The notes: generated from the letters alone by a model not told the origin. A stretch of 30,951 nt of DNA from an uncultured Gammaproteobacteria bacterium (GCA_964604585.1 CAZRZQ010000003.1:1847-32797); one strand, 5' to 3'; positions 1 through 28,101 are shown, numbered from the stretch's first letter. Numbers and translations: made by a program.

Positions 1-229
1 GATCGACGAGGTCTGCAACGGCCTCGACGACGACTGCGACGAGCAGACCGACGAGAGCCTGACGCGCCTCTGCTACACCGGTCCGGAAGGGACCGAGAGC
101 GTCGGTGTCTGCCACGGCGGCATCTCGACCTGCGTCCGGGGCCAGTGGGGCCTCTGCGTAGACGAAGTGCTCCCGATCGACGAGGTCTGCAACGGCCTCG
201 ACGACGACTGCGACGAGCAGACCGACGAG
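1..229 (+). repeat. 55-bp exact direct repeat (1-55 = 175-229), period 174 bp (58 aa)
   Basis: gatcgacgaggtctgcaacggcctcgacgacgactgcgacgagcagaccgacgag occurs at 1 and 175. Confidence 0.9.
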
Positions 230-1390: not shown

Positions 1391-1400
1391 TCGCGCGCCG

Positions 1401-1672
1401 GCCTGGCCCCGTAAGGCCGGGCTGACCTGACACTTTCGCCATGGCGGGAGTTGGGAGGGCTTCGGCCCCCGCTCTCGCCGGTTCGAATAGTTCGAAAAAT
1501 TAGAATCGCTTGACCCGCTTCGGCGGGATTGGCCCTGGCAATAGCCGGGGCATGGGGTCGGAGGCGTGAAAGATTTTTACGCCTTTCGCCCGTAGTTCTT
1601 TCGTCCCGACTAGTTCGGGACGGTGAGGAGAGGAGAATGAGACTTGTGCTTGTATAGGCAAAACTTCTCTCC
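1401..1672 (+). ncRNA. Candidate structured RNA or highly structured 3' UTR (tandem hairpins; family unknown)
   Basis: Hairpins at 1401-1422, 1443-1479 (C-UUCG-G loop), 1482-1496, 1514-1527 (C-UUCG-G loop), 1532-1551, 1562-1584, 1602-1622 and 1627-1672, with many G-U pairs. Confidence 0.45.
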
Positions 1673-1724
1673 AACCCTCACTTATATCCATGATTTACCT
1701 CGTGAATGTAAGTGAGGGTTTTTT
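1673..1724 (+). terminator. Intrinsic terminator
   Basis: aaccctcacttatat...atgtaagtgagggtt long stem ending in a T-run, followed by a T-rich tract. Confidence 0.8.
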
Positions 1725-1754
1725 GTTGCCTTTTTTCATTTTGTTTTTTAACTA

Positions 1755-1783
1755 TTGACATACTAACCTAGTATGATTATATA
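1755..1783 (+). promoter_or_regulatory. Sigma70-type promoter with a 7-bp inverted repeat in the spacer
   Basis: TTGACA (1755-1760), 17 bp, TATATA (1778-1783); catacta-acc-tagtatg at 1759-1775. Confidence 0.6.
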
Positions 1784-1847
1784 TATACTCTGGTCCTGTT
1801 GGTTGCCGGATGGTCCGGCGACAGCGGATAGACAGAGGAGGGTCAAG

Positions 1848-2396
1848 ATGCGTCTTAAGTGGTTCCTGGTGTTCACGGTCGTGTTTGGTCTGTCGATCGG
1901 CTGCGGGATCGAGGACGATGACGAGAAGGGGCGCAGGGCCGCCCCGCCCCAGCAGGTCGAGGATCGCGATGACGATGGCACGGATGACGGCCGTGAGGAC
2001 GTCGGGTGCCTCGCGTTCACCCTCGTGGTGGACCCGGGGTGCAGCGTGAGCCAGGTCTCGTTCTGGTCCGCGACAGGGAAGGACCCGATCTCGTTCTTCT
2101 CGCCGTCCAGCCAGATGAACGCGCGTGGGTTCGAGCGCAATTCGGCGCTCGAGGCCTGCTCGGTCACGCTCGACTGGCCCGGTCGGTGGGAGACCTGGGA
2201 GAACGACCGGCGGAATTTCCCGGGACCGAATGCGCCGACCGGGCACTGTGTCCTCGCCGGAGGCATTAACGTTCCCTTCGGGGAACTGAACGAGGGCGAG
2301 GCCGCCTACGGCTGTGCCCACGACGGGCGCACCAAGGACGGGGTTGTCGTCAACCCCTGTGCGGATGGTGGTTGCTACGCCGCTGCCCTCCGCTGA
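1848..2396 (+). CDS. Hypothetical Cys-rich lipoprotein-like protein (182 aa)
   Basis: GAGGAGG at 1835-1841 precedes ATG 1848 (in frame with track ORF 1773..2396). Signal-peptide-like MRLKWFLVFTVVFGLSIG-C, an acidic linker and 8 Cys; GC-rich codon usage. Confidence 0.75.
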   Translation: MRLKWFLVFTVVFGLSIGCGIEDDDEKGRRAAPPQQVEDRDDDGTDDGREDVGCLAFTLVVDPGCSVSQVSFWSATGKDPISFFSPSSQMNARGFERNSALEACSVTLDWPGRWETWENDRRNFPGPNAPTGHCVLAGGINVPFGELNEGEAAYGCAHDGRTKDGVVVNPCADGGCYAAALR

Positions 2397-2400
2397 AACT

Positions 2401-2446
2401 GTGCCGGAGGCGTGCGTTCGAAGTTCGGACGTGCGCCGCCGGCCAC
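2401..2446 (+). terminator. Long GC-rich hairpin after the lipoprotein gene (terminator or 3' stabiliser)
   Basis: gtg-ccgg-a-ggcgtgcgttcga-agt-tcggacgtgcgcc-g-ccgg-c-cac pairs over about 20 bp; AT-rich tract follows. Confidence 0.5.
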
Positions 2447-2530
2447 AACATATTTTGTTTAAAAATAAAACCACCTTGTCAGCGGTTTTTTTATTGTGTT
2501 TATTTTTTTTATTTCTCCTCTCTTCGTTTT

Positions 2531-3907
2531 TTACGCGTGCTCGGCGCTCCAGTAACCCCAGATCGCCCAGAACCACCAGATGACCGGGGTATGGTGGAGC
2601 ATATTGTCAGATAAAGAAAGGATTAGATAGACAAGAATGCTCAAGATAAAAATGGTGTTGGGCCATTTGTGTTTTTTACCGTATTGTATTTCTCGGTAGA
2701 GTAGGGTGGCGAAAATGGCGAGGTACAGCAGAAAACCAATGATACCGGTTTCAAAAGCAACTTTGAGATAGTCATTATGCGCCTCACTAGTATTATCCCA
2801 GATATTTCCCACTCCTTTACTAACATCCCAAACTGTTGCAAACGATCCGTAGCCATAGCCTAAGAGTGGGCGGTCACGGAAGAGTGGGAATACTTTGTTG
2901 GCGACGTCCCGTCGCCAAGCGATCGAATCCGCTTCGCGGTTGCGAGTAGTCAGTCTCGCGATTACCGAATTATTTTGGAGGTTAATATTAAAAGAACTGG
3001 TGAGCCAGTGGTTAATTGGAAAAAAGGAGGCGTAAAGAATGACTAGGATTGTTAAAGTGGAGAGGGTGGTTTTGGTTACTTTGATAAGGCCATAGGCGAC
3101 TAAGAAGAAAACAAAACCGATCCAGGCAATGCGGGTGTAGGTTAAGGTAATAATGGTGACCAGGAAAAGAAAAGCTAGAAAATACAGATCTTGTTGGTTT
3201 TTAAACCAAGCGTTGAACGGTTGAAAGAGCCAACGGTCTTTGTTTTTAAAAAAGGAGTCAAAGGCAAAGATAAAAAGTAGTAGAGCAAAAGTGGCGAGGA
3301 TATTCGGGTGAGCAAAGGTTCCATACAGGCGATTGGCGACGCCATCGATCATGAGGCCAGTGTGGGTGAAGTATTGGTAAACGGCGAGAGCGAGCGGGGG
3401 GAGGGCGCCGATAAGTAAAGTTTTCCGGAAATAGCGATCAAATTTAGTTGGGTATTTTAAGCGCATGACAAAAGTTACGCCAAAGAGGGCAAAGAGGTTG
3501 GCGGCTTTAAGTACCTCGGTAATAGTTGAACTTTTGTCAAAGGTGTAGGCATAGGTTATAGCGACCCAAGCGAGAAAGACGAGCCAAATTCGTCGGGCGG
3601 GGATCTGTTTCCAGTATTCGTGGTTTTTGATAAAAAACAAAATTGACCAAGCGAGTAAGATCAAAGAAATGCCGGCGTTAACATTAAAACGAAATTCATC
3701 TTCAGAAAGGACCACATAATCCCGCCAGTAATCTATGGTCGGACGGATAATTAGGAAAACCAGAAGGGCGTAATCACCGAAGAGTTTGTAAAGTAAGAAA
3801 AAGACTAACACCAAGAACGCCAGCACGTCGCCCGCGGTATAGGGGTTTACGATGGTAAAAAGGAGAAGGGCAATGAAAAAGAGGGCGTTGTATTTTAGGT
3901 TGGTCAT
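2531..3907 (-). CDS. O-antigen ligase / Wzy_C family membrane protein
   Basis: 458 aa, many hydrophobic helices; RLYGTFAHPNILA, TYTRIAW, RPLLGYGYGSF, AHNDYLKVAFETGIIG. Confidence 0.9.
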   Translation of the reverse strand: MTNLKYNALFFIALLLFTIVNPYTAGDVLAFLVLVFFLLYKLFGDYALLVFLIIRPTIDYWRDYVVLSEDEFRFNVNAGISLILLAWSILFFIKNHEYWKQIPARRIWLVFLAWVAITYAYTFDKSSTITEVLKAANLFALFGVTFVMRLKYPTKFDRYFRKTLLIGALPPLALAVYQYFTHTGLMIDGVANRLYGTFAHPNILATFALLLFIFAFDSFFKNKDRWLFQPFNAWFKNQQDLYFLAFLFLVTIITLTYTRIAWIGFVFFLVAYGLIKVTKTTLSTLTILVILYASFFPINHWLTSSFNINLQNNSVIARLTTRNREADSIAWRRDVANKVFPLFRDRPLLGYGYGSFATVWDVSKGVGNIWDNTSEAHNDYLKVAFETGIIGFLLYLAIFATLLYREIQYGKKHKWPNTIFILSILVYLILSLSDNMLHHTPVIWWFWAIWGYWSAEHA

Positions 3908-4068: not shown

Positions 4069-5085
4069 ATGATCAAAGGAGAAAACGTTAGTAAAGAGAT
4101 TGTTATTTACGAGGATAAAAATGGCCAGGTGAAAGTTGAGGCCGAAGTAAGGAAAGAATCAGTGTGGTTAACACTAAACCAAATTGCCCAGTTATTTGCT
4201 ACCCATAAGTCTGGTATCTCTAGACATTTTAGCAATATATTCGAGAATGGTGAATTATCAAGAGAAGCAACTGTTGCAAAAATTGCAACAGTTCAACTAG
4301 AAGGTAAAAGACAAATAGAGCGTTTGGTTGAGTTTTATAATCTCGACGCTATTCTTTCTGTTGGTTACCGGGTTAATTCTAAAAGAGCCACCCAGTTTCG
4401 TATTTGGGCGACGGGGATTTTGCGTAAGCATATTCTAGAGGGGTATAGCCTTAATGAGAAGCGCCTGCTGGAGTTACGGGGTAGAGAATTAAATGAATTT
4501 GAACAAGCCGTATCCTTAGTGCGTAAAACAATTAGTAATCGCGAACTTAACGGTAGAGAGGCGGAAGGGATTTTAAGGGTAATAACTGATTATGCTAATA
4601 CCTGGGTTTTGTTGCAAAAATATGATGAAGATAAGATAGAATCGCCCATTAAGTTTACCAAGGTCAAAAGAGCGTTTGCTTATGAAGAAGCAGTAGGTTT
4701 AGTTAATGAATTAAAAAATAATTTGTTAGAAAAGAAAGAAGCCGGTGATTTATTTGGCCGTGAACGCGGAGAATCTTTTGGGGGGATTATCGCAACCCTT
4801 AGCCAGGCTTTTGCTGGTAAAGATTTATATCCAAGCGTGGAAGCAAAAGCAGCTCATTTGTTGTATTTTGTGATTAAGGACCATCCGTTTAGCGATGGCA
4901 ACAAACGCCTGGCTTCATTTTTGTTTGTAGTATTTTTAGCCCGCAACAAGAGTTTGCTAAAGAAGAATGGTGAAAAGAAAATCAATGACAATGCACTGGT
5001 CGCTTTAGCCCTTCTAATTGCGGAAAGTGAACCAAAGCAAAAGGAGGTTATGGTTAAGCTCATAATGAATTTTTTGGCAGGTTAG
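4069..5085 (+). CDS. RhuM-like N-terminal domain fused to a Fic/Doc domain
   Basis: VWLTLNQIAQLF and YNLDAILSVGYRVNSKRATQFRIWAT (RhuM-like); HPFSDGNKR (Fic/Doc motif). Confidence 0.9.
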   Translation: MIKGENVSKEIVIYEDKNGQVKVEAEVRKESVWLTLNQIAQLFATHKSGISRHFSNIFENGELSREATVAKIATVQLEGKRQIERLVEFYNLDAILSVGYRVNSKRATQFRIWATGILRKHILEGYSLNEKRLLELRGRELNEFEQAVSLVRKTISNRELNGREAEGILRVITDYANTWVLLQKYDEDKIESPIKFTKVKRAFAYEEAVGLVNELKNNLLEKKEAGDLFGRERGESFGGIIATLSQAFAGKDLYPSVEAKAAHLLYFVIKDHPFSDGNKRLASFLFVVFLARNKSLLKKNGEKKINDNALVALALLIAESEPKQKEVMVKLIMNFLAG

Positions 5086-9384: not shown

Positions 9385-9600
9385 ATGCGTTTTAGACAGT
9401 CATTATTTTGGGATGTTGACCCAAAAACAATTGATGAAAAAAAACACGCTCGGTACATTATTGAACGGGTTTTAGATTTTGGTAATGACAAAGAAGTACG
9501 CTGGGTTTATCATAATTTTTCACCGCGGGTTATTAAGGATGTGGTAAAAAAATCAAGAGTTATGCATAAAAAATCCAAAGCCCTATGGTCTCTAATATAG
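9385..9600 (+). CDS. DUF6922-like small protein, putative antitoxin
   Basis: LFWDVD...HARYIIERVLDFG pattern; overlaps the downstream nucleotidyltransferase by 16 nt. Confidence 0.8.
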   Translation: MRFRQSLFWDVDPKTIDEKKHARYIIERVLDFGNDKEVRWVYHNFSPRVIKDVVKKSRVMHKKSKALWSLI

Positions 9601-10262
9601 AATCTACTGAAGATTTGCATTTTGACTCACTCCCAAAGGCGACGCAAGAAGCTTTTTTGGTTTGTCAAAAGATGGACTTGTTTGCGAAAAATAACTGGTA
9701 TTTAGCTGGTGGCACGGCTTTGGCTTTACAAGTGGGGCATAGGCAATCAGTCGATCTGGATTTTTTTACGCCGAATAAAAAATTTAAAGAGATAGAAGTG
9801 GAACGGGAGTTGTTAAATACCGGGCTGTGGTCCACTACTTATAGAGAGAATGGTACAATTTATGGAGTATTTAATGGAGCTAAAATGAGTCTGATCGCTT
9901 ATCCTTTTTTCTTGCCGCAAAAGAATAAATTAAAAATTGGAAAGATAAAAATTTTGTTGCCCGTGGACATTGCTTCGATGAAGATAGTGGCTGTAAGCCA
10001 ACGTGGCCGCAAGCGTGATTTTTATGATTTGTATTGGTATTGTAAAAATATTGCTCCGCTAGGTGAAGTGATATTAAAAGCAGTTAACCAGTATCCTGGT
10101 CAGGAAAATAACGTCGCTCATATTCTTAAAAGTCTGGCTTATTTTACTGATGCAGAAAACGACCCTGATCCAAAAATTTACTTTAAGGCCAGTTGGTTGG
10201 AAGTGAAGAAATTTTTTCGTCAGGAGGTAAAAAGTTTGACTCCTAAAATTTTACAGTTTTGA
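9585..10262 (+). CDS. AbiEii/AbiGii-family nucleotidyltransferase (type IV TA toxin-like)
   Basis: YLAGGTALALQVGHRQSVDLDFF; KIVAVSQRGRKRDFYDLY. Confidence 0.9.
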   Translation: MVSNIESTEDLHFDSLPKATQEAFLVCQKMDLFAKNNWYLAGGTALALQVGHRQSVDLDFFTPNKKFKEIEVERELLNTGLWSTTYRENGTIYGVFNGAKMSLIAYPFFLPQKNKLKIGKIKILLPVDIASMKIVAVSQRGRKRDFYDLYWYCKNIAPLGEVILKAVNQYPGQENNVAHILKSLAYFTDAENDPDPKIYFKASWLEVKKFFRQEVKSLTPKILQF

Positions 10263-10271
10263 AATCAATTA

Positions 10272-10469
10272 TTACTTAAGGAGGCTTATTACTTTAACAA
10301 AAATTTCTTTTGTGCATTCTGGGCAAAAATCAAAAGTCTCCCATCTTTTTTCGCTATTTGGCAAACTTTGATCAAGACCGTTAATGTTTAAACTAAGGCT
10401 CCCTGAGCCTTCTTTTTTGTTTTTTTCAATTTCTTTGTGGCATTTATCACAATTTGTTGTAGAGCTCAT
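10272..10469 (-). CDS. Small hypothetical zinc-ribbon-like protein (65 aa)
   Basis: CDKC...CPEC pairs; 20 bp downstream of and co-oriented with the PLP enzyme. Confidence 0.6.
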   Translation of the reverse strand: MSSTTNCDKCHKEIEKNKKEGSGSLSLNINGLDQSLPNSEKRWETFDFCPECTKEIFVKVISLLK

Positions 10470-10489
10470 AAAAATAAGTTAAAAATATT

Positions 10490-11380
10490 TTATTTCCCGG
10501 TAATCAAGCAAACGATTGGTCCGGTAATTTTTTTTTCATTTGTTAAATACTGTTGTAGGCCAACTAAACTTAAAATGCTGTTCGGAGACAAAACAATGTC
10601 TTCTTTTTCTTTTAGGAGAGTAAGTGTTTCTTGAATTTCTTCGTTAGTAGCTATCCAGGTGTTTCCTCGGCTTTCTTGTGCAGCATTGGCCACTGTAGTT
10701 TTGCGGTGGCCCACCTTATCTACAATGGCATCGGCTAAAGACAGTTTATTCGTGTCTGATGGTAGTTCTCCATTATGGTCTTCAACAAATGGATGGCAAG
10801 CGTCAGTTTGGACGATATGTATTTCTGGGTTTAAACCAAGTTTTTCGAATCCAAGATGCAATCCTAAAGCCGTCGTGCCACTCGAAGTGGGGATAAAAAT
10901 TGCCGCTACTGTGGGGAGCTCTTCCATTATTTCTTTAGCTAATTCCTCATAGCCAACAAGGGCCAGATCATCGGTGGATTGGCGCAAGTTTTTTACTTCT
11001 TCGTCTTTGTCCAACTGAAAAGCTACTTGTTTAGGATTCTTGACTTGTCGTAAAACAACGTTTTCATCCGTTAGGTTACGTAAAGCATTTATTTTTTCTT
11101 CATTAATATTTTCGCCAACTAGAATAAGAAGGGTGAGTTTGTTGTTATTATTTTTATTATAATCCGAGATATATAATCCCGCGGCCAGAGCGGCGTTGCC
11201 AGAAGAAGAAATGGTGAATTTGGTGTAACCTTGTTTTAAATAGTGTTCAATCATGAATGGAATCGATCTCCCCTTGTGGGACTTCAAAGGGTGAAGATCT
11301 TCGCGCTTAAAAAACAGCGACTCTTTTAGATTAAGAACTGTCTCGAGTTTTTCCATTCTTTGGAGAGGGGTTAAAGGCAT
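10490..11380 (-). CDS. Fold-type II PLP-dependent enzyme (threonine synthase / cysteine synthase-like; substrate unknown)
   Basis: FKREDLHPLKSHKGRS (PLP lysine region), SSSGNAALA, PTSSGTTALG, CLITG. Confidence 0.85.
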   Translation of the reverse strand: MPLTPLQRMEKLETVLNLKESLFFKREDLHPLKSHKGRSIPFMIEHYLKQGYTKFTISSSGNAALAAGLYISDYNKNNNNKLTLLILVGENINEEKINALRNLTDENVVLRQVKNPKQVAFQLDKDEEVKNLRQSTDDLALVGYEELAKEIMEELPTVAAIFIPTSSGTTALGLHLGFEKLGLNPEIHIVQTDACHPFVEDHNGELPSDTNKLSLADAIVDKVGHRKTTVANAAQESRGNTWIATNEEIQETLTLLKEKEDIVLSPNSILSLVGLQQYLTNEKKITGPIVCLITGK

Positions 11381-11382
11381 AT

Positions 11383-11411
11383 TTGACGTTTTAGGCTTTT
11401 TTTACTATACT
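11383..11411 (+). promoter_or_regulatory. Sigma70-type promoter for the LysW-like gene
   Basis: TTGACG (11383-11388), 17 bp, TATACT (11406-11411). Confidence 0.7.
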
Positions 11412-11453
11412 TAATTTCGCTTGTACATTACCTAACTTTAATTATTTGTAATT

Positions 11454-11618
11454 ATGAAGCTAACTTGCCCGGAGTGTAAAAATGAAGTGGATTTATCTAT
11501 TTACCCTAACTTGGCCAAAGGGGACGTAATTGAATGTGATAAATGCGGTATTACTCTTATGGTGACAAATATTGACGGAGACGAGGTAGTAGTCGAAATA
11601 GTGGACGAAGGAAAATAG
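11454..11618 (+). CDS. LysW-like zinc-ribbon protein, candidate amino-group carrier (54 aa; not in the ORF track)
   Basis: My translation: MKLTCPECKNEVDLSIYPNLAKGDVIECDKCGITLMVTNIDGDEVVVEIVDEGK*. The CPEC...GDVIECxxCG-L-V pattern and acidic tail match the LysW layout; it has its own promoter. Confidence 0.85.
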   Translation: MKLTCPECKNEVDLSIYPNLAKGDVIECDKCGITLMVTNIDGDEVVVEIVDEGK

Positions 11619-13025
11619 TTATTTTACCAATTCTTCAATCATCCCTCGGAAGCCGTGGCTACCGAGGAACACAACCACATCGTTTGGTTGTGTTTTGTTT
11701 TTGATATAAGTAATCAATTCGGCGTCTAGAGGTAAATATAAAACATTAGGGTGGGTTTTACTAATAATCTTGGTTAGTTCATCACCCTCAAGGCTCGTGT
11801 CATTTTCTTTGTTTTTTAATTTAGTCAGGCGGGGGATTATGACTTCAGTGGCATCGCTAAAAGCTTGGTCGTAAAAAGGAGCAGATTTTTTTTCGCGGTT
11901 GCCGGTATTAGGTTCAAAAATCGCGTAGATATTTCCAGTATAGATTTTTTTCAAGGCGTTTAAAGCCGACTTGGCTTTTGCTGGTGAATGAGCAATGTCA
12001 TCAAAGACATCGGCGCCGTTTAGAGTACCGCGTTTTTCCAGTCGGCGTTTTAAACCAGTAAATTTAGTTAAAGCAGTGATTATTTTTTTACTCGGTACGC
12101 CTATTTCACTCGCGAGCGCAAAAGCCCCACAAACATTCTCAGCCATGTATTCGCCGATAACTGGGACGTTTAGGTGATATAATTCGGCTTGATGGACGAT
12201 GTCCAAACTTAACCCGGTTTTGTTTTGCTGGATATTTAAGTAACAATAATCAGTTTGGGCGGAACGTCCATAGGAAACGAGTCGAGCAGCGAGGGGTGTC
12301 TCTTTGACCAACTTGTTTACATTGGTATTGTCGAGGCAAGCGACGATTAAACCAGATTTTGGTACCAGATTAAGTAATTCACTAAAAGCTCTGAAATAAT
12401 CGGTTTCAGTTTTATAAATATCAGCATGATCCCACTCTACCGCCGTTAGAAGTAAGTGGGTGGGGGAGTAGGATAAAAATTTTGGGCGGTTATCCCAACG
12501 AGCAGTTTTGTATTCGTCGCCTTCTAAAATACTCCACTCGGAATTATTTGGATTATCCGCGCTTAAGTCTAGATTTTTACTAATTCCCCCGAACATATAC
12601 GTGGGGTTATAACCAGATTCTTTTAATATCCAGGCAAGGAGAGTGGTGGAAGAGGTTTTGCCATAAGTACCAGCGCAAACAATCGAATTTTCTTTTACCA
12701 AATATCTGGCAATTAATTCTGGGTAGGAGACATATGGTAAGTTATTATCTTGGACATATTTCCATTCCGGGTTTTCTGACCCGGCCACATTTCCAACAAC
12801 CACCATGTATTCGTCGGTGGGGGTAGAATTATTTGTAAATTTTTCTAAAACTTTTTCCGGATGCCACCCTGGATAAAAAACAACGCCGTGTTTTTTTAGA
12901 TTGGTAGACACAGGTGGATAAAAACCCACGTCCGAACCAGTGACAACCCACCCTTTTTCTTTAAAAAGAATAGCGAGTGCGCTCATACCAACGCCACAGA
13001 TGCCGATGAAGTGGAGGTGTTTCAT
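11619..13025 (-). CDS. mpl: Mpl-like UDP-MurNAc:peptide ligase (MurC/Mpl family)
   Basis: GSDVGFYPPVS, GTYGKT, EGDEYKTARWDNRPKFLSYSP, EWDHADIY, DDIAHSP, FEPN and GSHGFRG fit Mpl better than MurC (from my recall of E. coli Mpl: GSDANVYPPMS, EADEY...DKRSKF, EFDHADIF). Confidence 0.8.
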   Translation of the reverse strand: MKHLHFIGICGVGMSALAILFKEKGWVVTGSDVGFYPPVSTNLKKHGVVFYPGWHPEKVLEKFTNNSTPTDEYMVVVGNVAGSENPEWKYVQDNNLPYVSYPELIARYLVKENSIVCAGTYGKTSSTTLLAWILKESGYNPTYMFGGISKNLDLSADNPNNSEWSILEGDEYKTARWDNRPKFLSYSPTHLLLTAVEWDHADIYKTETDYFRAFSELLNLVPKSGLIVACLDNTNVNKLVKETPLAARLVSYGRSAQTDYCYLNIQQNKTGLSLDIVHQAELYHLNVPVIGEYMAENVCGAFALASEIGVPSKKIITALTKFTGLKRRLEKRGTLNGADVFDDIAHSPAKAKSALNALKKIYTGNIYAIFEPNTGNREKKSAPFYDQAFSDATEVIIPRLTKLKNKENDTSLEGDELTKIISKTHPNVLYLPLDAELITYIKNKTQPNDVVVFLGSHGFRGMIEELVK

Positions 13026-13663
13026 ACAGCGTTTTTTAATTCATCTAAATCTAAGTTCCATTTTTTTTCGTCCCACCATTCTAATCCCGTAAACTGAATT
13101 TTATACAAAGCCGTTTCGTCTTTAACACTACCTAGGTAGACATATTTTTTATTCTTTTCCTTGGCTGAAGTTATTGCCTCGGTCATCATACCAATGCCAA
13201 GATTTGGTAAGTCAGTGTGTAAATTGTAAAAAGGATAAGAATAATGGAATAATTCATTGGTTTCTAAACAAATAGCATAACCAACCGGAATGTTGTTTAA
13301 GGTGTAGACAAGGAGCTGGTTAAAATTGGATTTGTCGGTTGTTAGTAATTCCTTTATTTTATTGGCGCTGAAAGTGCCGTCGCCAAATTTAGTGGTATAA
13401 AAGTCCTTGCCCAGTTTTCCGATTTCCCAGGTATATTTATCGTAGGGCAGGGGATGAGTAGTTAATTTAATTTCTTCATTTTTTCTTAAAATTCTTCGGT
13501 TTTCGCTCGTTAGTTCAAATTTTTCCAAGTTAATTCGTAAACTCCTGGTCTGGTAGAGGTAGCCTTTTTTGGTCCGACCAAAAAGCCAGCCTTGGTTGTA
13601 CAAGGCATTAAGATTACTATCGGAAAAGTCAGTCGTGGTTTGTTCTGCCCATTTTAAATACAT
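13022..13663 (-). CDS. ATE1/Bpt-like aminoacyl-tRNA transferase (GNAT fold)
   Basis: SLRINLEKF...NRRILRKN, YSYPFY...LGIGMM...AKEKNKKYVYLG...YK.F follow the ATE_N/ATE_C pattern; 4-nt ATGA overlap with mpl. Confidence 0.7.
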   Translation of the reverse strand: MYLKWAEQTTTDFSDSNLNALYNQGWLFGRTKKGYLYQTRSLRINLEKFELTSENRRILRKNEEIKLTTHPLPYDKYTWEIGKLGKDFYTTKFGDGTFSANKIKELLTTDKSNFNQLLVYTLNNIPVGYAICLETNELFHYSYPFYNLHTDLPNLGIGMMTEAITSAKEKNKKYVYLGSVKDETALYKIQFTGLEWWDEKKWNLDLDELKNAV

Positions 13664-13669
13664 AACAAG

Positions 13670-14800
13670 TTAGTAAAGAGCAACCCAAAGTCCTAGTAGT
13701 ACAGCGGCGGTATGCACAATCCAGAAACGCATGACGGTTTTTTCTTCACTCCAGCCGCGCAGTTCAAAGTGGTGGTGGAGCGGGGCCATTTTAAAAATGC
13801 GGCGACCGAGGATGTAGCGACCAAAGATTTGGATGATAACGCTCACCAGTTCAACATAAAAAATAAAAGCGAGAAGAGGTAATAGTACGAGTTGGTTCAT
13901 GACGATAATATTGATGGCGAGGAGTGCCCCGAGGCCGAGTGACCCAACATCGCTCATTTGAAAACGGGCCGGTTTGATATTAAAGTAAGTATAGGTAATT
14001 AAGGCACCGACAGTCGTGGCGTTTAAAAGGGTAATTTCATTTAATCCTTCCAGCCAGCTTAAAAGAGTTAAAGCCGAAAAAGTAATGATTAATGATCCGC
14101 CAGCTAAACCATCCATGCCGTCGGCGACATTAACGGCATTGGCGGTAAACATAACAAAGAAAATGATTAGTGGGATGATCCACCAACCGATGTTGATAAA
14201 CCCATCGAAAGGAATATGGATTTCACGCCAATTTTCACCGAGTTTAAAAAAGATCCACCAGGCCGTAATCGCGCCAGCGAGAAATTCAAGGAGTAGTTTC
14301 TCATGGACGTGTACCCCTTTACCAGGATGCGACCCCAACCAAAGAGAAATTCGTTTAAAAGCGGCCCACGGGAAAGTAACGATAAGCCAAATGCGATGCC
14401 AGATACTTTTGTGGACGCGGATTAAAGTAAGAATCTGACTAATTTTTCGGTTACGTCTCGGCGTACCAAAAATATTTAAGAGGTCGTCGACTCCGCCCAG
14501 GAATGACGACAGTAACATGACGCCGATTGGTACCCAGGTAAATTTACGTTCCCAGTTAAAAAGTATGGTAATTACTGCGACAGTTACGACCACCAAGAGT
14601 CCGCCCATAATCGGTGTGCCAGTTTTAGTTTGACGGCCATTTATACCGAGCGAGACGTCAAATTCATTGCGGCGGGTAATTTTGTATTTGTATAAAATCT
14701 TCGTAAGAAGCGGTGCCCAGAGAAAGGCAATCACACACGAAACTAAGCCAAAACTAATGGCTTTACGTAGTAATTCGAGGGTTTCTAGATTCATGGGCAT
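13670..14800 (-). CDS. mraY: Phospho-N-acetylmuramoyl-pentapeptide transferase with a large loop insertion
   Basis: KTGTPIMGG, GVDD, NAVNVADGMDG, MSDVGSLGLG, FKMAPLHHHFELRGWSE. Confidence 0.92.
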   Translation of the reverse strand: MPMNLETLELLRKAISFGLVSCVIAFLWAPLLTKILYKYKITRRNEFDVSLGINGRQTKTGTPIMGGLLVVVTVAVITILFNWERKFTWVPIGVMLLSSFLGGVDDLLNIFGTPRRNRKISQILTLIRVHKSIWHRIWLIVTFPWAAFKRISLWLGSHPGKGVHVHEKLLLEFLAGAITAWWIFFKLGENWREIHIPFDGFINIGWWIIPLIIFFVMFTANAVNVADGMDGLAGGSLIITFSALTLLSWLEGLNEITLLNATTVGALITYTYFNIKPARFQMSDVGSLGLGALLAINIIVMNQLVLLPLLAFIFYVELVSVIIQIFGRYILGRRIFKMAPLHHHFELRGWSEEKTVMRFWIVHTAAVLLGLWVALY

Positions 14801-14811
14801 AAGCGTTAGGG

Positions 14812-14840
14812 ATTATACCCCAAAAAGGTGTTTCGGGCAA
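14812..14840 (-). promoter_or_regulatory. Promoter of the mraY-ATE-mpl operon
   Basis: Minus strand: TTGCCC (14840-14835), 17 bp, TATAAT (14817-14812). Confidence 0.65.
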
Positions 14841-14854
14841 GATTAAGCCGAAAA

Positions 14855-14883
14855 TTGTGACTAAGTCCGGTTTGTGTTATAAT
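14855..14883 (+). promoter_or_regulatory. Promoter of corA
   Basis: TTGTGA (14855-14860), 17 bp, TATAAT (14878-14883) with an extended TG. Confidence 0.65.
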
Positions 14884-14902
14884 AAGGGGGTTAATTAAAT
14901 TT

Positions 14903-15931
14903 ATGGCCACTAAAATTAAAAATATTTCGCGCCGAGAGACAACCGGTAAAAATAAAATATATGTCTTTGATTTTGATCCAGTTAATTTGTTGGAAAAAGA
15001 AGTAAAATCAATTGACGAATGTGTTGAGTTAAAAAATACCCCCTCTATTACTTGGATTAACATTGACCGAGTACCGCCAGTGGACTTTTTGGATAAGCTA
15101 ACTTTGGGGTTTGATCTCCATCCCGTTGTAATTGATGACATTTTTAATGTTAACCAAAGACCAAAGATTGAAATTCTCGATGACTATATTTATTTGACCT
15201 TTAAAATGCTTTCGGCTGAAGTGGGTAAGAAGAATATTGTTGCGGAGCAGGTCAGTATGATTATTGGTGAGAAGTTTGTAATTACTTTTCAACAAGGTAT
15301 TGAGGGTGACACTTTTAGAGCGGTGCGGGAACGGATTAGGAATCCGAAAAGCCGGATTCGTACCCAGGGTACGGATTACCTCGGGTATGCTTTGTTGGAT
15401 TCGGTGGTCGATGGCTATTTTGGAATTTTGGAAAACTTCAGTGACCGATTAGAGAAGTTGGAGGAGCAGTTAATCAACGACCCCGGTTCGCACACCTTGA
15501 AAGAAATTCATACTTTGAAACGCGAGATTTTACATTTGCGTAAGGCAGTGTGGCCGTTGCGGGAAGCGATTACCATCATGGAGCGCGGTGAATCAAGGTT
15601 GATTAAAAAAACAACCCGTATTTATCTACGAGATGTTTATGACCACATAATCCAAATTATAGATACGGTTGAAACTTACCGGGAAATGCTTTCGGGGATG
15701 GTGGACATTTATCTTTCCAGTATTAATAACCGGATGAACTCAGTCATGAAGGTTTTGACTGTTATCACAACAATTTTCATGCCGCTAACTTTTATCGCCG
15801 GTATTTATGGCATGAATTTTAAACACATGCCGGAACTAGAACACGTTTGGGGCTATCCGTTTGTTTTGGGTGTAATGGCAACCGTTGCTTTAATAATGTT
15901 ACTGTATTTTCAGCGGAAGAAGTGGTTGTAA
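14903..15931 (+). CDS. corA: Magnesium/cobalt transporter CorA
   Basis: QRPKIE, YLRDVYDH, MKVLTVITTIFMPLTFIAGIYGMNF. Confidence 0.97.
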   Translation: MATKIKNISRRETTGKNKIYVFDFDPVNLLEKEVKSIDECVELKNTPSITWINIDRVPPVDFLDKLTLGFDLHPVVIDDIFNVNQRPKIEILDDYIYLTFKMLSAEVGKKNIVAEQVSMIIGEKFVITFQQGIEGDTFRAVRERIRNPKSRIRTQGTDYLGYALLDSVVDGYFGILENFSDRLEKLEEQLINDPGSHTLKEIHTLKREILHLRKAVWPLREAITIMERGESRLIKKTTRIYLRDVYDHIIQIIDTVETYREMLSGMVDIYLSSINNRMNSVMKVLTVITTIFMPLTFIAGIYGMNFKHMPELEHVWGYPFVLGVMATVALIMLLYFQRKKWL

Positions 15932-15934
15932 GTT

Positions 15935-16717
15935 TTACTTAAAGCAGTTCAATCTTTTTAAAATTAAGTCCTCGGCATTCTTGGCGTGGGTAAAAGTTTC
16001 GTTGTTATTACCGGTTTCATTTTTTTCTTCCCAAACTGCTTCCAAAAGCGGTTTTTTAGTGTCTGTGATTGTAATTCGACCGAGGCGTACACCGTGATCA
16101 TATTGTCCATCTTTTGACCACTGAAAAGAGTGAGCATAATTGATAGTGGTCGGGGTGTCCGCTTCTCTCTCTATTCTAGTAACGATTAAGACATGATTAT
16201 AGTCGTGTTTGGGTCCGGTTTTAAGCATTATGATCAGATCGCCGGCTCTGACATCTTCGTTTTTAATTTCATGGCTATTCTTTTCGTGGACGAGAGTACC
16301 AACACCGGTATTTTCAATCGGCCGGAGCCAAGCCAAAAGTTTTCTAAGCGGGCTTTTAATAAAGGGTCGCTTTAGATGTTTTTTTAAGGGTCCTAATTTT
16401 TTGCCCAAACTCTCCGCTTCTAAGAGATGATAGGCGAAACCAGAACAATCAGTACCTAAGTGGTGATTAGCTAAAAATTTTTTTAAATCACCAGAATCGA
16501 GTGTGCCTAGATCAATTTTTTCTCGAAGGGCGATTAGTTGTGCTTCTTCGGAAATTTCTTCGGCACCACCTTTTCCAACCAAAACTCGAAGAGCACCGCG
16601 TAGTCGCATGTGGCGGTTATTGAAATACGGGCAATTAACGGTGGCGTTAAAATTTGGTAGGTGTAAATAGTCAGCTAATACTTTTTTTGCCTCAGCGGTT
16701 AAATCACTCTGGATCAT
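15935..16717 (-). CDS. NlpC/P60-like (papain-fold) cysteine peptidase/amidase, no signal peptide
   Basis: GTDCSGFAYHLL (candidate catalytic Cys), then RAGDLIIM...NHVLIV (candidate His); 4-nt overlap with the upstream ATP-grasp gene. Confidence 0.65.
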   Translation of the reverse strand: MIQSDLTAEAKKVLADYLHLPNFNATVNCPYFNNRHMRLRGALRVLVGKGGAEEISEEAQLIALREKIDLGTLDSGDLKKFLANHHLGTDCSGFAYHLLEAESLGKKLGPLKKHLKRPFIKSPLRKLLAWLRPIENTGVGTLVHEKNSHEIKNEDVRAGDLIIMLKTGPKHDYNHVLIVTRIEREADTPTTINYAHSFQWSKDGQYDHGVRLGRITITDTKKPLLEAVWEEKNETGNNNETFTHAKNAEDLILKRLNCFK

Positions 16718-17967
16718 AATGCGTCAGTTAAAACAGTTTTAATTTTTTTACCGAGGGAATTTAGCTTTTCGTGGTTTTCTAAAACACCCGTTCGGCTTTG
16801 TAGGCGTAGCCAGTCGCTCTCTGTCTTTGTGTTGGAATAGACAAAGTACTTTAGTTTAAGTTTGTTTATTTTTATTTCGAGTTTTTTTAGATTTGGCATT
16901 TTTTTGACTACCTTTTGAATAATTTGTGCCCCGGTATTTATCTTAATTAGATTCGCTCCCTTTATGTTTTTATCTAGAAAAGATAGAAGGTGCGCCTCAA
17001 GCGTGGTTAGCCCACCCTTTTTTGTTTTTTTTCTAGTTTCATTTTGTAAAATACTTTCGTAAGTAGTGCTGGCGGGCTGTCGGGCGTTAATTTCGATTAA
17101 ATATAGTTTGTTATCTTCCGGGTTTAAAATGATATCAATACCAAAAAGACCGCGCCAACCGTTTTTTTGGAAGTGCCGGCCGATGTCTTTTGCTATTCTT
17201 TGGTAATTACGAATTTGTTTTTTAGTTAAGATTTTCGTTGGTAGCGCCCAGTCGTTTCCAATTGTTGCAAAAGAATTATTGGTAAAGGGGGATAAGCCCG
17301 TAATCTGGTAGTTAATATTCCCGACTAAAATTTTATTTTTCCACACTACATTGTTATTGGTAAACATCGGACCGGCAATGTATTTGGTTAAACGCGCTAA
17401 GCGTTTTGGAAATTTCTTTTTTAGTTCAGAAAGCTCAGATTCGGACTGGATAAGATAGGTGCCACTTCCGGTATGAGCGCGGTTGAATTGTAGAATAAAG
17501 GGCAAGGCGTTTTTTCCTTGGAAGGCGAATTTTGGCCAGGTGATTTTTTCTAAAGTTTTAATTTCGTGCGGGGGGAGGAACTTGTTTAAAGGGCCAAGCC
17601 ACTCAACTTGAGAAATTTTTTCTTCGACGAAGTTGGCGAAACTGGACTTGGGATTTAATAGCTCCCAGCTATTATTTTGGCAAATCTTTTCAATCACTGG
17701 GGTGTTTTTGAAAACTAGGATTCGGGGATCGTTCAATTTGTTTAAAAATGCCTTGGTTTGGTGGTGGCTAAGTAGCTCGTGGGTGTCTAAAAGCTTTTTT
17801 TCTTTAATAAGGAGGACATTGTCGAGCCCAGTACATTTTGACTTCACAAAGGGGGTAAAATTTGAGATAATATAATAACCCTTGGTATTTAGGGGTAAAC
17901 CAAGTGCCCGCTCGAGATCTCGGGTGACGTAAACTAGAGGGGTTTTACGTAAAAAGGATTCTAACAT
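16714..17967 (-). CDS. ATP-grasp ligase (417 aa; substrate unknown)
   Basis: ILQFNRAHTGSGT, TKYIAG, GLFGIDII, YLIEINAR. Confidence 0.85.
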   Translation of the reverse strand: MLESFLRKTPLVYVTRDLERALGLPLNTKGYYIISNFTPFVKSKCTGLDNVLLIKEKKLLDTHELLSHHQTKAFLNKLNDPRILVFKNTPVIEKICQNNSWELLNPKSSFANFVEEKISQVEWLGPLNKFLPPHEIKTLEKITWPKFAFQGKNALPFILQFNRAHTGSGTYLIQSESELSELKKKFPKRLARLTKYIAGPMFTNNNVVWKNKILVGNINYQITGLSPFTNNSFATIGNDWALPTKILTKKQIRNYQRIAKDIGRHFQKNGWRGLFGIDIILNPEDNKLYLIEINARQPASTTYESILQNETRKKTKKGGLTTLEAHLLSFLDKNIKGANLIKINTGAQIIQKVVKKMPNLKKLEIKINKLKLKYFVYSNTKTESDWLRLQSRTGVLENHEKLNSLGKKIKTVLTDAL

Positions 17968-17975
17968 ACAGGATA

Positions 17976-18004
17976 AGTATATTATTAAATCGCTAAAAAT
18001 GCAA
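17976..18004 (-). promoter_or_regulatory. Promoter of the ATP-grasp/peptidase operon (near-leaderless)
   Basis: Minus strand: TTGCAT (18004-17999), 17 bp, TATACT (17981-17976), 8 bp from the start codon. Confidence 0.55.
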
Positions 18005-18008
18005 TATT

Positions 18009-18536
18009 ATGGGTGAGGTAAGAAAAGTAAATTTCGGTGGAAACACAGAATCAGCCCAGGCCTTAGAAGTCCGGCGCGAGGAAGAAAAAAATGATGCTCT
18101 TCGGTTGGTCCGTCCGATTTTAGATTTGTTGCGTAAAAAGTTTATAATTGAGCTTCAAACCACAGGTGACAGTCCCTCACCGGCTGCTTATGCAAGTCTG
18201 CCACCGTGTTTACAGGAAGCCTGCCGATCAGGAAGGATTTTTCAGGACGTTGATCGTTGGGAGCTGCAGTTTAGATATATCGGAGAGCTGCTGGGGAAGA
18301 AATTTGCAAGATGGGAACTAGATATCGTATATAACCCCGAGGTAACAACTGAGATACCCAAACCTATTAAAGAGATTATCGCCCATAATTTTGAACCAAA
18401 GTTTGTAGCTGTTCAGATCAAAGCCGCAGACGAAGGCAATATTTTTTTGAAAAGAATAAAGGATTACGTTGAATCAGGAAAAATTTTTGAAGTGAGATTG
18501 GGATCGTTAGGGATTACGGCCGAAGATTTGTTGTAA
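18009..18536 (+). CDS. Hypothetical protein (175 aa)
   Basis: Open ORF filling the gap, 3 bp before murB; no motif recognised. Confidence 0.7.
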   Translation: MGEVRKVNFGGNTESAQALEVRREEEKNDALRLVRPILDLLRKKFIIELQTTGDSPSPAAYASLPPCLQEACRSGRIFQDVDRWELQFRYIGELLGKKFARWELDIVYNPEVTTEIPKPIKEIIAHNFEPKFVAVQIKAADEGNIFLKRIKDYVESGKIFEVRLGSLGITAEDLL

Positions 18537-18539
18537 TTT

Positions 18540-19478
18540 ATGCAAGAAATATATAAAACACTAAAAACTTTCGGTAAAGTCAAAGTTAATGTCCCTTTGG
18601 CTCGTTTTACGACTTTTAAAATTGGCGGACCGGCTAAGTTTTACGTCGAGGTGGCCGGTAAGGATGAGACGGCAGGATTGTTAAATTTCTTGTCTAGCGA
18701 AGGGATGACTTTTTATATTTTAGGCAACGGGTCAAATGTGGTTTTCTCGGATGAAGGTTATGATGGTGTTGTGGTGCGCTTCAAAAATGAAGAAATAAAC
18801 TTGATGGGGAATACGATTATTGCGGGAGCCGGAGCGGCTCTCGCCAAAGTTGTAAACCTGGCCTCGCAAAATAGCCTAAGCGGGCTTGAATGGGCGGCTG
18901 GAGTACCGGGTACGGTTGGTGGCGCGGTGCGTGGTAACGCGGGGGCGATGGGAAAAGAAACTTCAAATTGTGTTTCGGAAGTAGAAGTTTGGCAAGATGG
19001 GGAGGTAAAAAATTGGACAGCGAAAGAGTGTGGATTCGGTTACCGGGATAGTGATTTTAAGAATAACCAAGCCGTAATTTTGGAGGTTAAGTACGTTTTG
19101 AATCCTGGGGATAAGGCAACAATTTTGGCAGAAATGCAAAAATATTTAAAACAACGTTCAGGGCGCTATCCCGCTTATCCCTCAGCGGGGAGTTTTTTCA
19201 AGAATGTTAAGGTGGCGGATTGGCCAGGAGATAAAAGTGAGCTGCCACCATTATATATTGAGCGCAAGATGATCCCGGTCGGTTGGCTGATCGAGGGTGT
19301 TGATTTAAAAGGATACGCGATTGGTGGCGCCAAGTTTTCTGAGGAGCATGGGAATTTTATTGTGAATTTTAATAACGCTACTCAAGCGGACATTGTGGCT
19401 TTAGTTGAAGAGGCTAAGTCTAGAGTGTATAATAAATATAAGGTGGGGATTGAACCGGAAGTGGAGATTGTTCAATAA
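18540..19478 (+). CDS. murB: UDP-N-acetylenolpyruvoylglucosamine reductase
   Basis: TTFKIGGPA, LGNGSN, GVPGTVGGAVRGNAGA, SAGSFFKN, HGNFIVN. Confidence 0.96.
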   Translation: MQEIYKTLKTFGKVKVNVPLARFTTFKIGGPAKFYVEVAGKDETAGLLNFLSSEGMTFYILGNGSNVVFSDEGYDGVVVRFKNEEINLMGNTIIAGAGAALAKVVNLASQNSLSGLEWAAGVPGTVGGAVRGNAGAMGKETSNCVSEVEVWQDGEVKNWTAKECGFGYRDSDFKNNQAVILEVKYVLNPGDKATILAEMQKYLKQRSGRYPAYPSAGSFFKNVKVADWPGDKSELPPLYIERKMIPVGWLIEGVDLKGYAIGGAKFSEEHGNFIVNFNNATQADIVALVEEAKSRVYNKYKVGIEPEVEIVQ

Positions 19479-27973: not shown

Positions 27974-28101
27974 AATAAAAAGACCTTCCGCCAGTTTGGG
28001 GCTTATAAACCCCGGCCGAAAGCCTTTCTTGTTTTTAAGATACCATATTGTCATAAATGGTCAAGTGGTTATTGGGTTAACGGAAAGAATAGAGAGTGTT
28101 T

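Follow-up and report, generated by a model that had tools for sequence, protein, structure and literature searches.

A stretch of 30,951 nucleotides from an uncultured bacterium (the window; C3:1847-32797 of the source assembly) carries a cluster in which five accessory genes accompany mraY and a gene for a Mur ligase of the MurC/Mpl type. The accessory genes code for a threonine-synthase-like pyridoxal phosphate (PLP) enzyme, a LysW-like zinc-ribbon carrier, an ATE-like protein, a NlpC/P60-like cysteine amidase, and an ATP-grasp protein. In our judgement it is about evenly balanced whether this module replaces MurC, MurD, and glutamate racemase (MurI) and thereby builds residues 1 and 2 of the peptidoglycan stem peptide. 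The source assembly, placed in Candidatus Magasanikbacteria from the names attached to homologues, comprises 925 kb in 79 contigs and is 93% complete. It was compared with a class-wide sample of 201 genomes (completeness at least 85%) and with a near-relative sample of 41 genomes, made up of the own genome and 40 relatives: 25 genomes of the own family (f1), two of family f5, and 14 of eight sister families of the same order.

Distribution of the module and of MurC, MurD, and MurI

Canonical MurC and MurD were found in none of the module-bearing genomes searched. In the class sample, MurD was present in 175 of the 201 genomes. The ATP-grasp gene (presence threshold E ≤1e-60) and the LysW-like carrier gene occurred in exactly the same 12 genomes, 10 of which also had the ATE-like gene. 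MurD was absent from all 12, and the ATP-grasp, LysW-like, and ATE-like genes were each absent from all 175 MurD-bearing genomes. Where the ATE-like match was missing, the fetched locus ends at the ligase (G114) or meets a contig end (G127); one additional MurD-less genome of this sample has an ATE-like fragment at a contig end. The 12 module genomes span five families (f1, f13, f16, f35, and f84), all but f1 belonging to other orders. The module-type ligase was confined to MurD-less genomes. The class-wide search with the ligase profile had a lax threshold and was read by bit score, module ligases reaching 640-725 bits vs. 255-415 for canonical MurC; with the murC model, canonical MurC elsewhere in the class scored 370-505 bits vs. 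150-300 for the module ligase. MurI exceeded its cut-off in 133 of the 201 genomes and in none of the 12 module genomes, two f35 genomes having only a MurI paralogue (77-80 bits). That glutamate racemase is missing from module genomes is an addition to the initial annotation of the window, which had proposed a bypass of MurC, MurD, and MurE.

MurC and MurD are retained in eight families of the own order. MurD was detected in all 14 genomes of these sister families and in none of the 27 genomes of f1 and f5, the closed genome G021 included. The ATP-grasp and ATE-like genes showed the reverse distribution, each occurring in 26 of the 27 f1 and f5 genomes and in none of the 14; the two misses are assemblies 84% and 90% complete. 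An incomplete assembly as the reason for the MurD gap was rejected, since all 27 genomes of the two families, a one-contig genome among them, gave no MurD. No additional MurC/MurD-like gene turned up in the closed genomes.

The own assembly has a canonical MurE on contig C4 (328.7 bits, over the cut-off), MurA on C46, a Ddl-like gene on C26, and MurG together with two FtsW/RodA genes elsewhere; MurB, MurF, MraY, and a class B penicillin-binding protein are encoded in the window. Searches of the whole assembly for MurD gave cross-hits to other Mur ligases only; those for a MurC-type gene gave none besides the window ligase, and those for MurI and for a fold-IV D-amino-acid transaminase (Aminotran_4) gave none. 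All genes named by the initial annotation were recovered, the LysW-like protein among them, and the window holds no murC, murD, or murE. That annotation had singled out intact murC, murD, and murE elsewhere, with no co-occurrence of the accessory genes, as the outcome to look for against it; MurC and MurD were not found, and the genes co-occur and cluster. The bypass is thus supported for MurC and MurD, whose canonical forms were not found in the own or the other module-bearing genomes, and is unsupported for MurE because the canonical enzyme is retained; the proposal that residue 3 is made by the PLP enzyme and the carrier is therefore unsupported as well. Mur-ligase frames of MurE size, as judged by length alone, recur in related genomes. 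A split MurD was considered for two Mur-ligase fragments at contig ends (C51 and C53) and rejected, as these are the two halves of FolC. The N- and C-terminal parts of FolC run off the contig ends at C53 5747-6157 (+) and C51 6008-6985 (-), and the two contigs probably adjoin in the genome.

Gene order of the module

On the minus strand of the window lie the PLP gene (10490-11380), the ligase gene (11619-13025), the ATE-like gene (13022-13663), mraY (13670-14800; TIGR00445 179.7 bits, Glycos_transf_4), the P60-like gene (15935-16717), and the ATP-grasp gene (16714-17967). On the plus strand are the LysW-like gene (11454-11618), between the PLP and ligase genes, and corA (14903-15931; CorA 5.7e-71), which is outside the module. 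The gene for MurB, which makes the uridine diphosphate N-acetylmuramic acid (UDP-MurNAc) substrate, is divergent from the ATP-grasp gene (18540-19478, +; MurB_C and FAD_binding_4). The ATE-like and ligase genes overlap by 4 nucleotides, as do the ATP-grasp and P60-like genes, and 6 nucleotides separate mraY from the ATE-like gene.

The clustering does not stem from chance, as it recurs for the same genes in 10 relatives of f1 and f5 and in seven genomes of four more distant families. In the 10 relatives the order is ATP-grasp, P60-like, mraY, ATE-like, ligase, LysW-like (opposite strand), and PLP, with murB divergent and no corA. In f16, f35, and f84 it is ATE-like, ligase, LysW-like, PLP, ATP-grasp, P60-like, and mraY, and in f13 only the ATE-like, LysW-like, PLP, and ATP-grasp genes stand together. 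Three pairs are kept adjacent: ATE-like and ligase, ATP-grasp and P60-like, and LysW-like and PLP. The P60-like gene lies directly downstream of the ATP-grasp gene in all loci except those of f13, and the LysW-like gene accompanies the module in each of the 10 close relatives and at six distant loci. The PLP gene clusters with the module in six families (f1, f5, f13, f16, f35, and f84), mraY adjoins it in five (f1, f5, f16, f35, and f84), and murB adjoins the ATP-grasp gene in eight of the 10 relatives. The genes are physically linked in six or more families, and we read the cluster as a single functional module. An alternative raised at the outset, that of two unrelated modules split by corA, did not survive this comparison: corA, oppositely oriented, separates mraY from the P60-like gene only in the own genome, is absent from that place in 10 of 10 relatives, and is an insertion specific to the own genome. 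It is not a divider of two modules because the genes cluster, in another order, in five further families.

In f35 (L061:11771-18175 and L062) the module lies directly upstream of mraY-ftsW-murG of the division and cell wall (dcw) cluster, and no gene occupies the murD slot between mraY and ftsW. This locus also has an Orn/Arg/diaminopimelate-decarboxylase-like gene, placed after a MurC-type ligase gene that is considered below.

The Mur ligase

The murC and mpl models (TIGR01082, cut-off 335.1 bits; TIGR01081, cut-off 388.7 bits) were calibrated on known enzymes. With the murC and the mpl model, respectively, E. coli MurC scored 610 and 182 bits, E. coli Mpl 273 and 914 bits, the canonical MurCs of this class 424-506 and 176-259 bits, and the module ligases 261-295 and 218-253 bits. 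The window ligase remained below both cut-offs, with 266 bits for TIGR01082 and 238.7 bits (239 when rounded) for TIGR01081. By these scores, the module ligases are a third subfamily beside MurC and Mpl.

Phylogenetic trees were rooted on MurD and contained a single Mpl reference, that of E. coli. The module ligases formed their own clade (100/99) outside the MurC clade, in which E. coli MurC grouped with the canonical MurCs of the class (Shimodaira-Hasegawa-like approximate likelihood ratio test, SH-aLRT, 95). The best solved relative of the module ligase profile was the Psychrobacter arcticus protein 3hn7 (278 bits, vs. at most 243 for MurCs), which is an Mpl (PMC3060825). In the alignment, an 8-residue loop (x-A-x-W/F-D/N-x-x-x-K-F) after E(G/A)DEY was present in the module ligases and in E. 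coli Mpl and absent from six of six MurCs; the same distribution was observed for the RRLE, (F/L)EP, and GFxG motifs of the peptide-binding C-terminal domain. These loop and C-terminal-domain positions are listed as Mpl-specific in the description of that enzyme, a recycling enzyme that accepts L-Ala-D-Glu, tripeptides, and up to pentapeptides, with a preference for tripeptides (PMC3060825). Taken together, the clade, the solved relative, and the motifs class the window ligase as a putative Mpl-type enzyme rather than MurC, in agreement with the initial annotation. It is the only UDP-MurNAc-type ligase in f1.

The LysW-like carrier

The LysW-like gene codes for a zinc ribbon of 54 amino acids with the tail VDEGK, which passes PF21344 (33.5 bits; gathering cut-off 27). 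PF21344 was found on nearly all of the 120 carrier homologues listed. The C-terminal Lys was invariant in 120 of the 120 best homologues, 98 of which end in VDEGK, and the tails in distant lineages are EEEK, EVEK, ETEK, and ENDK. The invariant feature of the carrier is thus a terminal Lys after acidic residues and not the terminal Glu of LysW; it is devoid of the EDWGE tail whose terminal Glu holds, through its gamma-carboxyl, the substrate amine in LysW. Genes of the LysZ, LysY, LysJ, or LysK type were absent from the cluster at the 17 loci inspected, the search being confined to these loci. Of the LysW-type system that had been proposed for the window, the zinc ribbon stands; the terminal residue and the type of ATP-grasp enzyme do not fit it.

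A second small open reading frame (ORF), of 65 amino acids with a CxxC motif (10272-10469), was considered as the LysW-like gene and rejected: it matches no family, its last residues are SLLK, and relatives do not conserve it.

The transferase, ATP-grasp, PLP, and P60-like proteins

The ATE-like protein (213 amino acids) gave sequence matches to the NCBIfam arginyltransferase (1.9e-11, below the cut-off; NF002346, 43.9 bits vs. 170) and to ATE_C (7.8e-4; 20.5 bits vs. 25), and PF04377 was present on about half of the homologues listed. Its AlphaFold2 model had a predicted local distance difference test (pLDDT) score of 92. Aminoacyl-tRNA transferases took the leading places among the fold matches of this model: human ATE1 came first (query-normalized template modelling score, TMq, 0.77), and then FemX, aminoacyl-phosphatidylglycerol synthases, and L/F-transferase. 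The protein is thus predicted to have an ATE1-type fold, similar to that of the Gcn5-related N-acetyltransferases (GNAT), as the initial annotation had suggested. It lacks the Cys-rich N-terminal (ATE_N) region, its match beginning at model position 61-79 of about 240, and it has a single Cys. The acceptors of ATE1 and Bpt are N-terminal Asp and Glu residues.

The ATP-grasp protein scored just over the cut-off with ATP-grasp_3 (PF02655; 23.6 bits vs. 23.2), and its AlphaFold2 model (pLDDT 82.7) is a three-domain ATP-grasp. The closest fold matches (VIA) were PurK (Z 24 over 356 residues) and then Lal 3vot, 8ynd, PylC 4ffl, and BesA 8yi6 (Z 20-21), with PurT also a neighbour. The protein is classed with the carboxylate-amine ligases of this structural group. 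LysX and RimK were outside the top 50 fold matches, and there was no RimK/LysX match in NCBIfam; membership of the LysX/RimK group is therefore unsupported by the NCBIfam scan, the profile search, and the fold search alike. Neither the ATP-grasp nor the ATE-like profile gave a useful match in sequence-profile searches of the PDB, so fold searches were needed. Of the structural neighbours, PylC forms an amide at the epsilon-nitrogen of Lys, and BesA activates the gamma-carboxyl of Glu. A C-terminal NUDIX domain (PF00293) is fused to the ATP-grasp protein in many Magasanikbacteria, e.g., at L039:10653-12296 (G021) and L042:5934-7649 (G024), a fusion that might point to proofreading or to a substrate linked to a nucleotide. 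A role of this protein as the Ddl of the organism was rejected, a Ddl-like gene being present on C26 and most relatives having Ddl elsewhere; no Ddl match was obtained in G021 (closed) or G024, both of the own family.

The PLP enzyme is of fold type II (PALP 1.7e-36). A profile of 16 orthologues matched threonine synthases best (2zsj, 8.5e-25), followed by Ser/Thr dehydratases and Asp/Ser racemases, with SbnA among the distant relatives. The Schiff-base lysine in SHK(G/D)R is invariant. Its best score with the threonine synthase equivalogs of NCBIfam was 65.8 bits (cut-off 358); it is a divergent ThrC-like enzyme. A substitute for alanine racemase was considered and rejected, as Alr is present in three of five other module genomes; no alanine racemase match was obtained in the own genome or in closed G021.

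The P60-like protein has weak matches to NLPC_P60 (19.6 bits vs. a gathering cut-off of 23), Amidase_6, and CHAP, and its Atlas neighbours are NLPC_P60/CHAP proteins. Its Cys-His-His residues (Cys91, His175, and His196) are invariant in 14 orthologues. Inspection of the translation revealed no hydrophobic signal-like stretch at the N-terminus. Enzymes of the NlpC/P60 type typically cut gamma-D-Glu-diamino-acid bonds.

Proposed route and alternatives

A route was derived by giving each module protein the typical chemistry of its family. In this route the ATP-grasp protein would ligate the gamma-carboxyl of Glu to the epsilon-amine of the terminal Lys of the carrier, which would hold a carboxyl group, the reverse of LysW. 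The ThrC-like PLP enzyme would epimerise the tethered Glu, whose alpha-amine and alpha-carboxylate would stay free, and the ATE-like transferase would add L-Ala from Ala-tRNA to the alpha-amine of this residue, which resembles an N-terminal acidic residue. The Mpl-type ligase would then join UDP-MurNAc to the L-Ala amine, the carrier-bound L-Ala-gamma-D-Glu-Lys resembling the tripeptide substrate of Mpl. Release by the P60-like amidase would take place at the gamma-D-Glu-Lys bond, the type of bond that such amidases usually cut, and MurE, MurF, and MraY would act as usual thereafter. We regard this specific order and these linkages, a carboxyl-group carrier route on the terminal Lys of the LysW-like protein in several lineages of Patescibacteria, as a tentative proposal that is possible and short of probable. 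It would account for the switch from Glu to Lys at the carrier end and for the make-and-break pairing of ATP-grasp and P60-like proteins, for the coupling of the ATE-like and ligase genes and the Mpl-type enzyme in place of MurC, and for the loss of MurI with retention of MurE.

Several observations weigh against the replacement of MurC, MurD, and MurI by the module, or against the route. Every chemical step is inferred from chemistry at the family level, and five genes in place of three are unparsimonious in a reduced genome. The PLP enzyme is closest to threonine synthase and not to a racemase, and the NUDIX fusion finds no explanation in the route. In the ligase trees, E. coli Mpl joins the module clade only weakly (91/55.8), and the alternative placement was not rejected (approximately unbiased, AU, test, p 0.40). 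The complementarity counts exaggerate independence, since many of the genomes are related to one another and the module lineages may go back to only a few separate evolutionary events. In family f13, the two complete genomes G043 and G229 have no MurD and contain the module-type ligase, and a search of both detected none of the ATP-grasp, ATE-like, LysW-like, and P60-like genes; around the module-type ligase of f13 genomes there were no additional module genes either. These two genomes may hold another variant or depend on salvage. In the f13 genomes with the core of ATE-like, LysW-like, PLP, and ATP-grasp genes, a P60-like gene was not detected. Finally, the f35 locus has, after murG, a second, MurC-type ligase (murC model 288-297 bits, mpl model 136-139 bits) at the murC position of the dcw cluster, so that in this family the module would replace only MurD and MurI or be partly redundant.

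Two other explanations are, in our view, similarly unlikely. One is salvage or editing of host wall peptides, also raised by the initial annotation: the P60-like protein, acting in the cytoplasm, would trim imported L-Ala-gamma-D-Glu-X to L-Ala-D-Glu, the Mpl-type ligase would load the dipeptide or tripeptide, MurE would add the own residue 3, and the other genes would serve accessory editing. This would explain the loss of MurC, MurD, and MurI with MurE kept, and it agrees with the Mpl-like character of the ligase, Mpl being a recycling enzyme for di- to pentapeptides, with the typical NlpC/P60 cut at gamma-D-Glu-diamino-acid bonds, with the small genome (925 kb) expected of host-dependent Patescibacteria, and with the two f13 genomes that have the ligase and none of the other module genes searched. 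It assigns no role to the strict core of four genes (ATE-like, LysW-like, PLP, and ATP-grasp), which are always together and are the best correlate of MurD absence, and the cluster has no linked peptide transporter.

The other is a tRNA-dependent supply of D-Glu, in which the ATE-like protein would load Glu from Glu-tRNA on the epsilon-amine of the carrier Lys, the PLP enzyme would epimerise it, and the P60-like protein would free D-Glu; the ATP-grasp protein, an analogue of MurD, would act on UDP-MurNAc-L-Ala, and the ligase would simply serve as the MurC. All components find a use here. ATP-grasp and Mur ligases share the same acyl-phosphate chemistry, Fem-type relatives of the ATE-like protein acylate Lys epsilon-amines, the MurC-type ligase of f35 is kept beside the module, and the NUDIX fusion hints at a nucleotide-linked substrate of the ATP-grasp protein. 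This scheme nevertheless leaves unexplained why canonical MurC was replaced by a ligase with Mpl-specific peptide-site motifs, as well as the tight coupling of the ATP-grasp and P60-like genes. A carrier would be a costly means of racemising Glu, and ATE/Bpt acceptors are N-terminal acidic residues and not Lys side chains.

Less probable again is a product outside stem positions 1 and 2, such as a Fem-like bridge or side-chain modification or another envelope glycopeptide, with MurC and MurD replaced by unrecognised, unrelated genes. The Fem/MurM transferases, which are tRNA-dependent wall modifiers, have the same fold, D-Asp ligase is an example of an ATP-grasp ligase that adds branch residues, and the module is linked to mraY. 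Nevertheless, module and MurD are mutually exclusive across the 201 and 41 genomes, the closed genomes yielded no other MurC/MurD-like gene, and the module ligase is the sole ligase of UDP-MurNAc type in f1. The full version of the initial annotation, in which the PLP enzyme makes residue 3 on the carrier and Mpl loads a complete tripeptide, bypassing MurC, MurD, and MurE, draws on the Mpl-like ligase with its preference for tripeptides and on SbnA among the distant PLP relatives, and is very improbable given a canonical MurE in the own genome, no LysZ/Y/J-type enzymes linked to the cluster, and a carrier without the terminal Glu that holds amino groups.

Comparison with known systems

The replacement of MurC, MurD, and MurI by the module would depart from several known systems. 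The closest parallel to the carrier is the LysW/ArgW amino-group carrier protein (AmCP) system, with loading by LysX/ArgX and release by LysK. Both have a zinc-ribbon carrier of about 54 amino acids, of the same Pfam family and with an acidic flexible tail, whose gene lies beside those of an ATP-grasp ligase and a hydrolase, and both follow a logic of tethering, modification, and release. The module differs in the terminal residue of its carrier, an invariant Lys (VDEGK, EEEK, ENDK) where LysW has the Glu of EDWGE, a difference implying that attachment is of opposite polarity. It also differs in an ATP-grasp protein similar to PurK, Lal, and PylC rather than to RimK/LysX, in a Cys amidase instead of an M20 peptidase for release, and in having, in the cluster, no LysZ/Y/J genes and as partners a Mur ligase and a tRNA-dependent transferase. 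Unlike Mpl, the module ligase forms a separate clade, is the sole UDP-MurNAc ligase in f1 and not a recycling side route, and is operon-coupled to the ATE-like transferase.

To our knowledge, the cytoplasmic MurC-MurD-MurE-MurF pathway is regarded as nearly universal in wall-bearing bacteria and is a paradigm of drug targeting, and the only exception that we know of for MurD, the MurD2/MurL system, continues to rely on a Mur ligase. In that Xanthomonas system a MurD homologue adds L-Glu and an ATP-dependent epimerase acts on the UDP-linked peptide (PMC8788868). The module as proposed would share with it D-Glu at position 2 without glutamate racemase, the D-centre being made after the residue is attached; in contrast, searches of module genomes gave no MurD-family gene, and these genomes would use a carrier, a PLP enzyme, and a tRNA-dependent transferase instead. 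The Fem/MurM and ATE1/Bpt transferases have the same fold as the ATE-like protein, and Fem enzymes use aminoacyl-tRNA in the synthesis of wall precursors, Ala-tRNA in the case of FemX. Fem enzymes build cross-bridges on residue 3, whereas the role proposed here, at stem residue 1, would be unprecedented; ATE1/Bpt tag proteins for degradation and have a Cys-rich N-terminal region that is absent from the module protein.

Two further systems resemble parts of the module. In the scaffold-peptide (pearlin) pathways of amino-acid biosynthesis, which use peptide aminoacyl-tRNA ligases (PEARLs), an amino acid is added from aminoacyl-tRNA onto a small carrier peptide, tailored, and released by proteolysis; PEARLs are LanB-like and act on the C-terminal carboxylate of the carrier. 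Glutathionylspermidine synthetase/amidase (GspSA), which acts on small molecules, joins an ATP-grasp-like synthetase and a CHAP amidase that work on one amide bond. The module has in common the carrier and tRNA logic with the former and the make-and-break pair with the latter, neither of which is known to be tied to peptidoglycan. A full-text literature search gave no description of this gene combination or of MurD absence in these bacteria, and none of the five accessory proteins has a specific model in the June 2026 release of NCBIfam. If the proposal holds, a carrier protein and aminoacyl-tRNA at stem positions 1 and 2 would represent a new biosynthetic logic in peptidoglycan synthesis, LysW-type carriers would extend to a reversed polarity with carboxyl instead of amino groups, and ATE-like transferases would acquire a biosynthetic role. 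It would also explain wall synthesis without MurC, MurD, and MurI in Magasanikbacteria and at least five other families, within a large group of the candidate phyla radiation.

Surrounding genes and other features of the window

Further along the window are the genes for the class B penicillin-binding protein (28096-29826) and for MurF (from 29883 onward). A scan of the window against Rfam gave no RNA family. Besides the 65-amino-acid ORF at 10272-10469, the ORFs at 18009-18536 (175 amino acids) and 14806-15141 (111 amino acids, overlapping corA and without a family) are not conserved in relatives. Positions 9385-10469, between a GHL15 gene and the PLP gene, contain a pair of DUF6922 and AbiEii genes (type IV toxin-antitoxin) in addition to the 65-amino-acid ORF. 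GHL15 and PLP genes are close neighbours in those relatives whose fetched locus has both, with neither DUF6922, AbiEii, nor the small ORF between them, and this block looks like an insertion specific to the own genome. At 4069-5085, a protein with RhuM and Fic/DOC domains is encoded between a Wzy-like gene and a radical-SAM gene, a place where it does not occur in relatives. Positions 1-3000 have a G+C content of 0.54-0.68, compared with about 0.40 across the remaining window and the genome. This stretch begins directly after a scaffold gap of 100 N (C3:1747-1846), contains an ORF with a MopE-type Cu-binding motif together with long ORFs that overlap on both strands, and may be a scaffolding misjoin or foreign DNA.

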